From the IMG/VR virus record IMGVR_UViG_2529292828_000011: a stretch of 44,960 nt of DNA; one strand, given 5' to 3'. A program made the translations under genes and the position numbers. The notes under the pieces were generated by a model that saw nothing but the letters and a program-made list of their open reading frames with translations, searched no databases and was not told the DNA's origin. Each line of letters starts with the position of its first letter. Within the stretch, counting starts at the first letter, position 1. Positions 1-733 of this stretch are shown one piece after another. The stretch comes from a virus (lineage: Duplodnaviria > Heunggongvirae > Uroviricota > Caudoviricetes).

Positions 1-544
1 TTAATCCAGGTCGGCCTGTCCTTGTTCCGCTTTATTTATCTTCAAATATTTGTTCACATCCTGCACAAACAAGAGCGTTTCGTTGCAGGTCTGTATTCTG
101 GTCATTTGTTGATACCCTTACATAACCAATCAGCACACTGAATCTCCCGTCCAAAAGCGCAAATCATGCCATGCAGGCCGGATACGGCCATTATCTAAAA
201 CCTCGGTTTACAGGAAACGGTAAATCAGGCTTCTGGCGCATTACAGAAAAACCAGAACGGTGCAGATATTCCGGTAAAAGATACCTTCACCAAAAATATT
301 GGTGCCTGCCGCGCATATAGAGCATGGCTGAATATTGGTGGCGATAGTCAGATCTGGACAACCGCGCAATTTATTTCGTGGCTGGAGAGTCAGGGGGCAT
401 TTAACCATCCTTACTGGATGTGCAAAGGCTCATGGGCTTATGCAAATAATAAGGTTATTACAGATACAGGTTGCGGAAATATTTGTCTTGCAGGTGCTGT
501 GGTGGAAGTTATTGGCACTCGCGGCGCAATGACCATACGCGTTA

Positions 545-733
545 CTACTCCGAGTACGTCCTGCGGCGTCTGTCGCCCATTTTTCCGAAAATAAATGCTC
601 CGACAATACGTGCCACATAACCTGCACCGTAGGTTCCCATTGCCAGAATTAACGCCATTGCCGTTGATGATTCAGGAAAAAATATTTCATGAAACACTAA
701 CGCTGCGCCGAGCGAATATAACTGGAAACCCAT
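545..733 (-). pseudogene. internal fragment of an MFS metabolite:H+ symporter (ydfJ-like), truncated at both ends
   Basis: 62-aa ORF with the MFS loop motif (FGKMGDR..) but with an in-frame stop two codons upstream of its Met and no downstream continuation; lies at the prophage/host junction. Confidence 0.45.

Follow-up and report, generated by a model that had tools for sequence, protein, structure and literature searches.

Features at the left end of the window

The window, that is, the whole stretch of 44,960 bp that was analysed, carries a lambdoid prophage whose integrase gene lies at the far end, and its left end is made up of a series of partial genes and boundaries placed ahead of the tail-fibre genes of the prophage. 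The features relevant to this work are the following:

1-136, minus strand: remnant of the 5' part of a gene for a Pin/Gin-type serine DNA invertase, with a GTG start at 136, running off the left end of the window
191-216, minus strand: 26-bp invertase crossover site TTCCTGTAAACCGAGGTTTTAGATAA, perfect, the right-hand site of an invertible segment
199-568, plus strand: Sv'-type cassette encoding an alternative tail-fibre C-terminus, of whose approximately 320 codons the first 123 and one further base remain, cut at 568
545-733, minus strand: chimeric 62-codon ORF, composed of 3 prophage codons, 52 ydfJ codons and 7 codons (RRRTYSE) antisense of the tail-fibre cassette
568-569: blunt rearrangement junction between cassette and ydfJ
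569-724, minus strand: internal fragment (52 codons, residues 32-83 of the 455-aa YdfJ) of ydfJ, the host gene for an MFS transporter (MHS family)
725-733, minus strand: prophage/host att junction region, whose prophage bases ATG-GGT-TTC start the truncated ydfJ ORF
734-953: terminal non-coding stretch of the prophage at the ydfJ site, which includes a decayed DinI-like fragment (about 793-882)
954-1529, minus strand: tail-fibre assembly gene (DUF4376) of the resident prophage, without crossover site
1543-3537, minus strand: side tail-fibre gene of the resident prophage, without crossover site
43665-44960: tyrosine integrase gene, IntQ-type (431 aa, PF00589)

Plus frame 1 is open for 132 codons from 199 to 594, flanked by a TAA at 196-198 and a second one at 592-594, and its first ATG, GTG or TTG is found at position 418. 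An earlier note on this DNA, made from the letters alone, had described this frame as open and devoid of a start codon, which proved to be correct. The same note had pointed out a transporter ORF at 545-733 on the minus strand. This 62-codon ORF is indeed present, and the transporter is YdfJ, as the note implied, given the 96% DNA identity with ydfJ of strain A8. The additional claim that the ORF is an internal fragment stands relative to the ancestral 455-aa gene only, and fails in that the ORF shares the ATG of the annotated K-12 ydfJ CDS, which is located within prophage DNA. The two frames overlap by 50 nt (545-594) because each of them runs across the 568/569 junction into the antisense of the other piece until a stop codon is reached: past the junction, the cassette frame acquires the tail VCRPFFRK and a stop, and the ydfJ frame acquires RRRTYSE and a stop.

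The remnant of a tail-fibre switch

The N-terminus of the protein encoded by the remnant at 1-136, VLIGYVRVSTNDQ..., matches the Pfam Resolvase family (PF00239, E=1.4e-6) and the PHROG 'DNA invertase' family phrog_8275 (E=7.3e-25). At the DNA level, the remnant aligns ungapped, at 97% identity, with the 5' end of the gene encoding an intact 196-aa recombinase in E. coli E300082. In the window, a nonsense codon (TAA, at 32-34) occupies codon 35 and leaves the first 34 codons of the gene. In the assemblies of the same lineage, the invertase frame stops after codon 64, continuing into a tail-fibre-assembly fragment in all these genomes, and DNA similarity to the intact pin gene persists for about 40 nt past this stop. 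Codon 35 is TTA (Leu) in four of eight related assemblies, versus TAA in the window, and this TAA is a second, more recent inactivating event in an already truncated invertase gene. As to the distribution of the underlying base among these assemblies (L004 to L011), position 33 of the window is T in the window itself and in L005, L007, L010 and L011, and A in L004, L006, L008 and L009.

Upstream of the invertase start lies the crossover site, which is perfectly palindrome-like. When matches with up to three mismatches were counted, the window yielded one (expected, 0), and no second credible copy of the site core AAACCNNGGTTT was found in the 44,960 bp, resident side tail-fibre gene included. 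In three relatives, namely L002 and the ETEC strains 504838 (L012, NZ_CP025856.1) and 90-9280 (O114:H49; L013, NZ_CP024240.1), this same site and a partner in inverted orientation bound an invertible segment.

The cassette frame opens within the crossover site, and 123 of its approximately 320 codons are kept (38%), the remaining 62% being missing. Its nature had been left by the earlier note between two speculative options, an orphan alternative C-terminal segment of a tail fibre or a decayed host gene. A search for protein-level similarity revealed that the translation of the cassette matches many PHROG tail-fibre families at internal profile positions, among them phrog_21834 (E=4.9e-59) and phrog_26292 (E=3.9e-38, profile positions 741-832 of 1190), and a Pfam search of the cassette returned no match. 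These PHROG matches, together with the in-frame fusion of the same cassette to Stf in strain 90-9280, bear out the first option, and the second one is ruled out for 199-568, as this segment is a tail-fibre cassette. The comparison with the ydfJ-ydfK-pinQ region of K-12, which had been suggested as a model, was also run: K-12 Qin matches window positions 569-874 only and none of positions 1-568, and the K-12 arrangement is thus not homologous to the latter. Taking the alignments of the cassette and of ydfJ together, the homology of both frames lies far beyond chance.

Positions 1-568 of the window are found, with 97% DNA identity and without gaps, in 132 complete E. coli genomes, in which the annotation reads as a recombinase gene followed by a divergent 'tail fiber protein, missing N-terminus'. 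In E300082, the order is gpH-like fibre gene, tfa, tfa' and cassette (both on the opposite strand), and recombinase gene, and the intact layout stf-tfa / tfa'-Sv' / site / recombinase is annotated in E300082, 504838 and 90-9280. The last two strains, both with a lambda-like prophage adjoining potB, differ in the position of the cassette. In strain 504838 it is silent beside an invertase remnant; in strain 90-9280 it lies on the other strand, fused in frame at residue 671 of the 990 residues of Stf, and this part of Stf is identical to the window fragment in 117 of 122 amino acids. Between both strains, the outer and inner flanks of the two crossover sites are exchanged, which is the signature of site-specific inversion. 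The cassette frame lacks a start codon and opens in the site because the start, along with some 670 N-terminal residues, comes only upon inversion. It was also observed that the switch occurs in both orientations across 504838 and 90-9280, though their own invertase is cut to 64-72 aa in both; either these flips are older than the truncation of the invertase, or they result from the invertase of another prophage acting in trans.

In an intact switch of this kind, the invertase would recombine the site at 191-216 with its inverted partner inside the side tail-fibre gene, and a segment of about 3 kb would flip, so that the C-terminal third of the fibre would come from this cassette, accompanied by its own assembly chaperone, in place of the other one. 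The receptor specificity would be changed by the cassette flipped in. In the window, the assembly gene belonging to the cassette (tfa') is absent after it. Considering this anatomy, with a truncated invertase, no partner site, the chaperone gone and the cassette cut, the switch remnant is most probably inert.

The ydfJ stub and the prophage boundary

A by-eye comparison showed no difference between codons 4-55 of the 62-codon ORF and residues 32-83 of the uninterrupted 455-aa YdfJ (P0002). The similarity extends beyond the gene: window positions 569-998 are 96% identical to strain A8, where the annotation comprises ydfJ (missing N-terminus), a DinI-like fragment, a DUF4376 protein and a tail fibre, and K-12 is 90% identical to the window from 569 to 874, a stretch that includes prophage-end DNA. 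Full-length YdfJ homologues match PF00083/PF07690. The Pfam search of the stub gave no match; with 52 residues left, the complete 12-helix MFS fold is absent.

The attachment point can be placed within the ORF itself. In K-12, the feature 'cryptic prophage Qin' begins 9 nt within the ydfJ CDS, and Qin is stated, in PMC6379469, to remove the 28 N-terminal codons of ydfJ. The ancestral YdfJ reads ...EFMDF on one side of att and QLYSLG on the other, and the N-terminal piece (MTIEKHERST...EFMDF) is found beyond the integrase in related genomes. When the left junction was compared with the DNA found past the integrase in a relative, no exact att core repeat of at least 10 bp was detected, the shared core being only about 9 bp with one mismatch (ATGGRTTTC). 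In the other genomes shown with it, the integrase at 43665-44960 adjoins rspB/rspA and the ydfJ N-terminal stub; this stub and rspB lie outside the window and were read in other genomes with an identical integrase. The ydfJ flank, together with an integrase that elsewhere adjoins the ydfJ stub and rspB, therefore indicates that the window prophage is probably an ordinary ydfJ-site (Qin-type) lambdoid prophage. Its true left boundary falls at about 725-733 rather than at the invertase, and the region holds two junctions, namely att at this position and the rearrangement scar at 568/569.

Several additional observations concern the prophage itself. The DinI-like fragment (793-882, plus strand), between the tail-fibre assembly gene and att, is annotated in A8 as 'DinI-like family protein, partial', and the copy in the window contains a stop. 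Both the window and L005 have the lambda J-like tail-tip gene (4275-7969, minus strand) broken up into three ORFs of 364, 141 and 766/736 aa, and L004, L006, L008, L009 and L010 have it as one gene of 1233 aa; with this gene split, the window prophage is probably defective for tail assembly. In the early region, a 449-aa ORF (32401-33750, minus strand) has an equivalent in related prophages with a PF27235 (AF_1680) match and a weak DUF4145 match, and may be an accessory or defence gene of the prophage. Genes of the hok/rem, dicB and ydfE-like types are also found in the early region of related prophages. The allele of an 823-aa YdfE-like protein was retrieved in 1,443 blocks, the places shown including none from the lineage that carries the junction.

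The junction between cassette and ydfJ

A three-way alignment with parental-type sequences placed the limit between both pieces at a single point. The similarity to the cassette stops at 568 and that to ydfJ starts at 569, with no shared base, no inserted base and no microhomology. The window reads ...CTGCGGCG up to the breakpoint and TCTGTCGCC... after it. In the parents, the corresponding positions read ...AGCGG(C/T)G followed by (A/G)CGGAAT... for the cassette, and ...CGCCCTAT followed by TCTG(T/C)CGCC... for ydfJ. A junction made by the invertase or by the integrase was considered and rejected, as the breakpoint sequence of neither parent is similar to the crossover site or to the att region, and the join is therefore illegitimate, not mediated by a recombinase. 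A separate observation is that position 563, five bases before the breakpoint, is T in the window and A in all three related cassettes (L002, 504838 and 90-9280), a difference that may go back to a mutation accompanying the join or simply to divergence of the lineage.

The occurrence of this junction was then relevant to the notion that it might be an artefact of assembly or of the construction of the window. No junction was found among the 5,426 complete RefSeq E. coli genomes, and an exact-match scan of the GTDB species representatives with the junction 40-mer gave none, as such an artefact would predict. Against this notion, positions 1-1000 of the window are 99.8-100% identical, with the junction unchanged, in eight independent NCBI draft assemblies of E. 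coli (L004 to L011), in which it is located mid-contig (contigs of 50-667 kb). The same junction is present in a metagenome contig (L020) from a different project, and the exact 62-aa chimeric ORF occurs in 56 contigs of NCBI E. coli draft assemblies, having been deposited as 'inner membrane metabolite transport YdfJ domain protein [Escherichia coli MP020940.1]'. An artefact can thus be dismissed for practical purposes, and the junction is real and clonal.

All these observations can be integrated by assuming that two dead fragments, the remnant of a tail-fibre switch and the ydfJ host flank of the prophage, became linked at 568/569 through an illegitimate, blunt recombination event, a reading to which we assign a probability of roughly 0.85.

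The potB side and the origin of the rearrangement

The question of where the switch remnant came from can be addressed in the junction-bearing assemblies, in which the sequence to the left of the window contains the invertase remnant, a tfa fragment, a gene for a class I methyltransferase, a second tfa fragment and the genes potB-potA-pepT-roxA-phoQ-phoP-purB. Twenty-six complete genomes share the potB-side arrangement as far as the junction point, and in these genomes it leads on to a complete tail-fibre switch plus a lambda-like tail module. In the literature, potB and ydfJ are regarded as standard sites of lambdoid prophages. Within the same region, positions 10800-12100 of L005 contain the methyltransferase gene (222 aa, class I SAM-dependent) between the two tail-fibre-assembly fragments, and these share a repeated stretch (…GHSISGAVDVSTRF…); it looks as if the gene had been inserted into a tfa gene.

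A different provenance would be the window's own prophage, in a situation similar to that of pinQ in K-12 Qin, and the invertase and cassette could then still switch its fibre. The cassette lies near the resident stf and tfa genes, and K-12 Qin does carry a pin gene near ydfJ. Nevertheless, host ydfJ DNA (569-724) and the end of the prophage separate the cassette from the resident tfa, the resident stf is devoid of a crossover site, and nothing in K-12 Qin matches positions 1-568. Moreover, the invertase is cut to 34 codons, and the same module, together with the same truncated invertase, is found in the 26 complete genomes mentioned above on the potB side of another prophage. This provenance is accordingly regarded as highly improbable. 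The invertase and cassette instead represent, judging from these comparisons, the potB-proximal end of a different lambdoid prophage site, rearranged next to the ydfJ stub.

The minus strand of K-12 carries both potB (1.184 Mb) and ydfJ (1.631 Mb), which are on opposite strands in L004 to L011. Since the relative strand of the two genes is opposite to that in K-12, a simple deletion cannot yield the arrangement. The simplest origin would be a single inversion of about 450 kb (from 1.18 to 1.63 Mb in K-12 coordinates) across the terminus, which we consider somewhat likely. In such an event, one break would have occurred in the cassette and the other in ydfJ, turning about 450 kb that include the terminus region. 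The predicted reciprocal junction would read ...CACTTTTTTACGCCCTAT before and RCGGAATYACTAACGCTCAATTC... after the breakpoint, with the remainder of ydfJ joined to the 3' part of the cassette.

Several results bear on the alternative that the 568/569 junction arose by a multi-step route and not by one illegitimate inversion. One variant of this route would involve a homologous inversion between oppositely oriented prophages at the potB and ydfJ sites, followed by an illegitimate replacement or deletion; in another, the ydfJ-site prophage would have excised aberrantly, taking 165 bp of ydfJ with it, and then recombined into the remnant at the potB site. As would be compatible with such a route, no reciprocal junction was seen: a metagenome scan with an anchor in the ydfJ remainder, a spacer N{20,50} and an anchor in the cassette 3' part retrieved none, in a search with almost no power, given that the window-junction control itself retrieved only 1 contig, and no obvious reciprocal chimera appeared among the top 120 clusters of the YdfJ homologue search. 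The only clusters with 87% query coverage in that search, P0009 (a C-terminally cut partial) and P0013 (a ydfJ-ydfI fusion), were considered and discarded, as they are not the predicted reciprocal product. Both sites harbour prophages with similar lambda-like tail modules in opposite chromosomal orientation, which favours homologous inversions between prophages, and deletions and segment replacements at the ydfJ and potB prophages are described as frequent in the literature. Nonetheless, at least two events would be needed where one suffices, and the window prophage is contiguous from the ydfJ stub to the IntQ-type integrase, like ordinary ydfJ-site prophages. A multi-step route is therefore judged possible but rather doubtful, and the single inversion is retained as the preferred origin.

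Present function and significance

Whether anything is still encoded at the scar was considered from the perspective of the chimeric ORFs. Two candidates might be expressed with an acquired function: the 62-aa ORF, which would form a two-helix YdfJ stub, and a 58-aa ORF at 418-594. The first keeps its ATG and the prophage-end upstream region that is used by K-12 ydfJ, and it is conserved among the strains bearing the junction. This conservation, however, is that of clonal near-identity (99.8-100% over 1 kb) and provides no evidence of selection, single-nucleotide polymorphisms are found within the region at positions 33, 352 and 434, and the chimeric tails have no family match. Nor is there any RNA family, an Rfam scan of positions 1-2000 having returned no match. 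An acquired function is thus very unlikely, and from the anatomy of both fragments we infer that no function remains in either of them.

The scar between the two pseudogene fragments is real but ordinary; it is nothing new in kind, and the junction implies no new biology. Its value is mainly practical. Prophage finders and gene callers produce here a 'transporter' (YdfJ domain protein) and hypothetical ORFs, which should be marked as two pseudogene fragments and a scar, and the latter can be used as a clonal marker. If the inversion were confirmed, it would be one more case of prophage regions acting as breakpoints for large rearrangements around the terminus. Little credence is given to the stronger proposals that the scar marks a stable, homology-free inversion of about 450 kb in one E. 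coli clone, probably ETEC-related, or that the 62-aa stub is expressed as a small membrane protein. Were the inversion of this kind, the orphan site and its former partner would lie about 450 kb apart in direct orientation, and invertases of resident P2-like prophages (whose sites are 97% identical) could, acting in trans, attempt recombination on a megabase scale.

Comparison with known systems

The G segment of Mu with Gin, the C segment of P1 with Cin and the P region of e14 with Pin are invertible tail-fibre segments served by serine invertases, and in the case of Gin, Hin and Cin, a Fis-dependent recombinational enhancer is located in the 5' part of the invertase gene. The e14 layout, which was checked, is stfP-tfaP / tfaE-stfE / pinE. 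The window resembles these switches in layout: the invertase gene, here a remnant, is closely preceded by a crossover site of about 26 bp, within which a divergently oriented cassette for a tail-fibre C-terminus opens, lacking a start codon. Its intact relatives also have two cassettes, each with its assembly gene, and are found in both orientations between strains. Unlike them, the window has a single site, 38% of a single cassette and 34 codons of the invertase gene. With respect to e14 stfE/pinE, the DNA match is limited to the invertase 5' region (75%), and unlike Mu and P1, the intact relatives reside in lambda-like prophages at potB and in P2-like prophages. With one site, an incomplete cassette and a broken invertase, the window remnant is therefore classified as a relic of the Gin/Pin/Cin class and not as a member of it.

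The closest counterpart of the left piece is the potB-site prophage end of strains 504838 and 90-9280, with 97-98% DNA identity from potB through the methyltransferase gene, the tfa fragments, the truncated invertase and the site. The identity runs into the cassette up to exactly the breakpoint of the window. Beyond it, the cassette in both strains continues to tfa', tfa, stf, lom and J, unlike that of the window, which is cut at codon 123 and joined to ydfJ.

The right piece finds its counterpart in K-12 Qin and ydfJ (b1543). The attachment junction is the same, with ydfJ restarting at a prophage-derived ATG and its N-terminal 28 codons lost, and the integrase type and the right-hand neighbours (rspB onward), as read in relatives, are also the same. 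K-12 keeps 427 ydfJ codons, in contrast to the 55 in the window. In addition, what K-12 retains of Qin is short and cryptic and has ydfK-pinQ beside ydfJ, whereas the window carries a prophage of about 44 kb without ydfK or pinQ and, unlike K-12 Qin, its DUF4376 tfa gene and stf abut ydfJ. The ydfJ piece is, consequently, a relic of standard integration at the Qin site.
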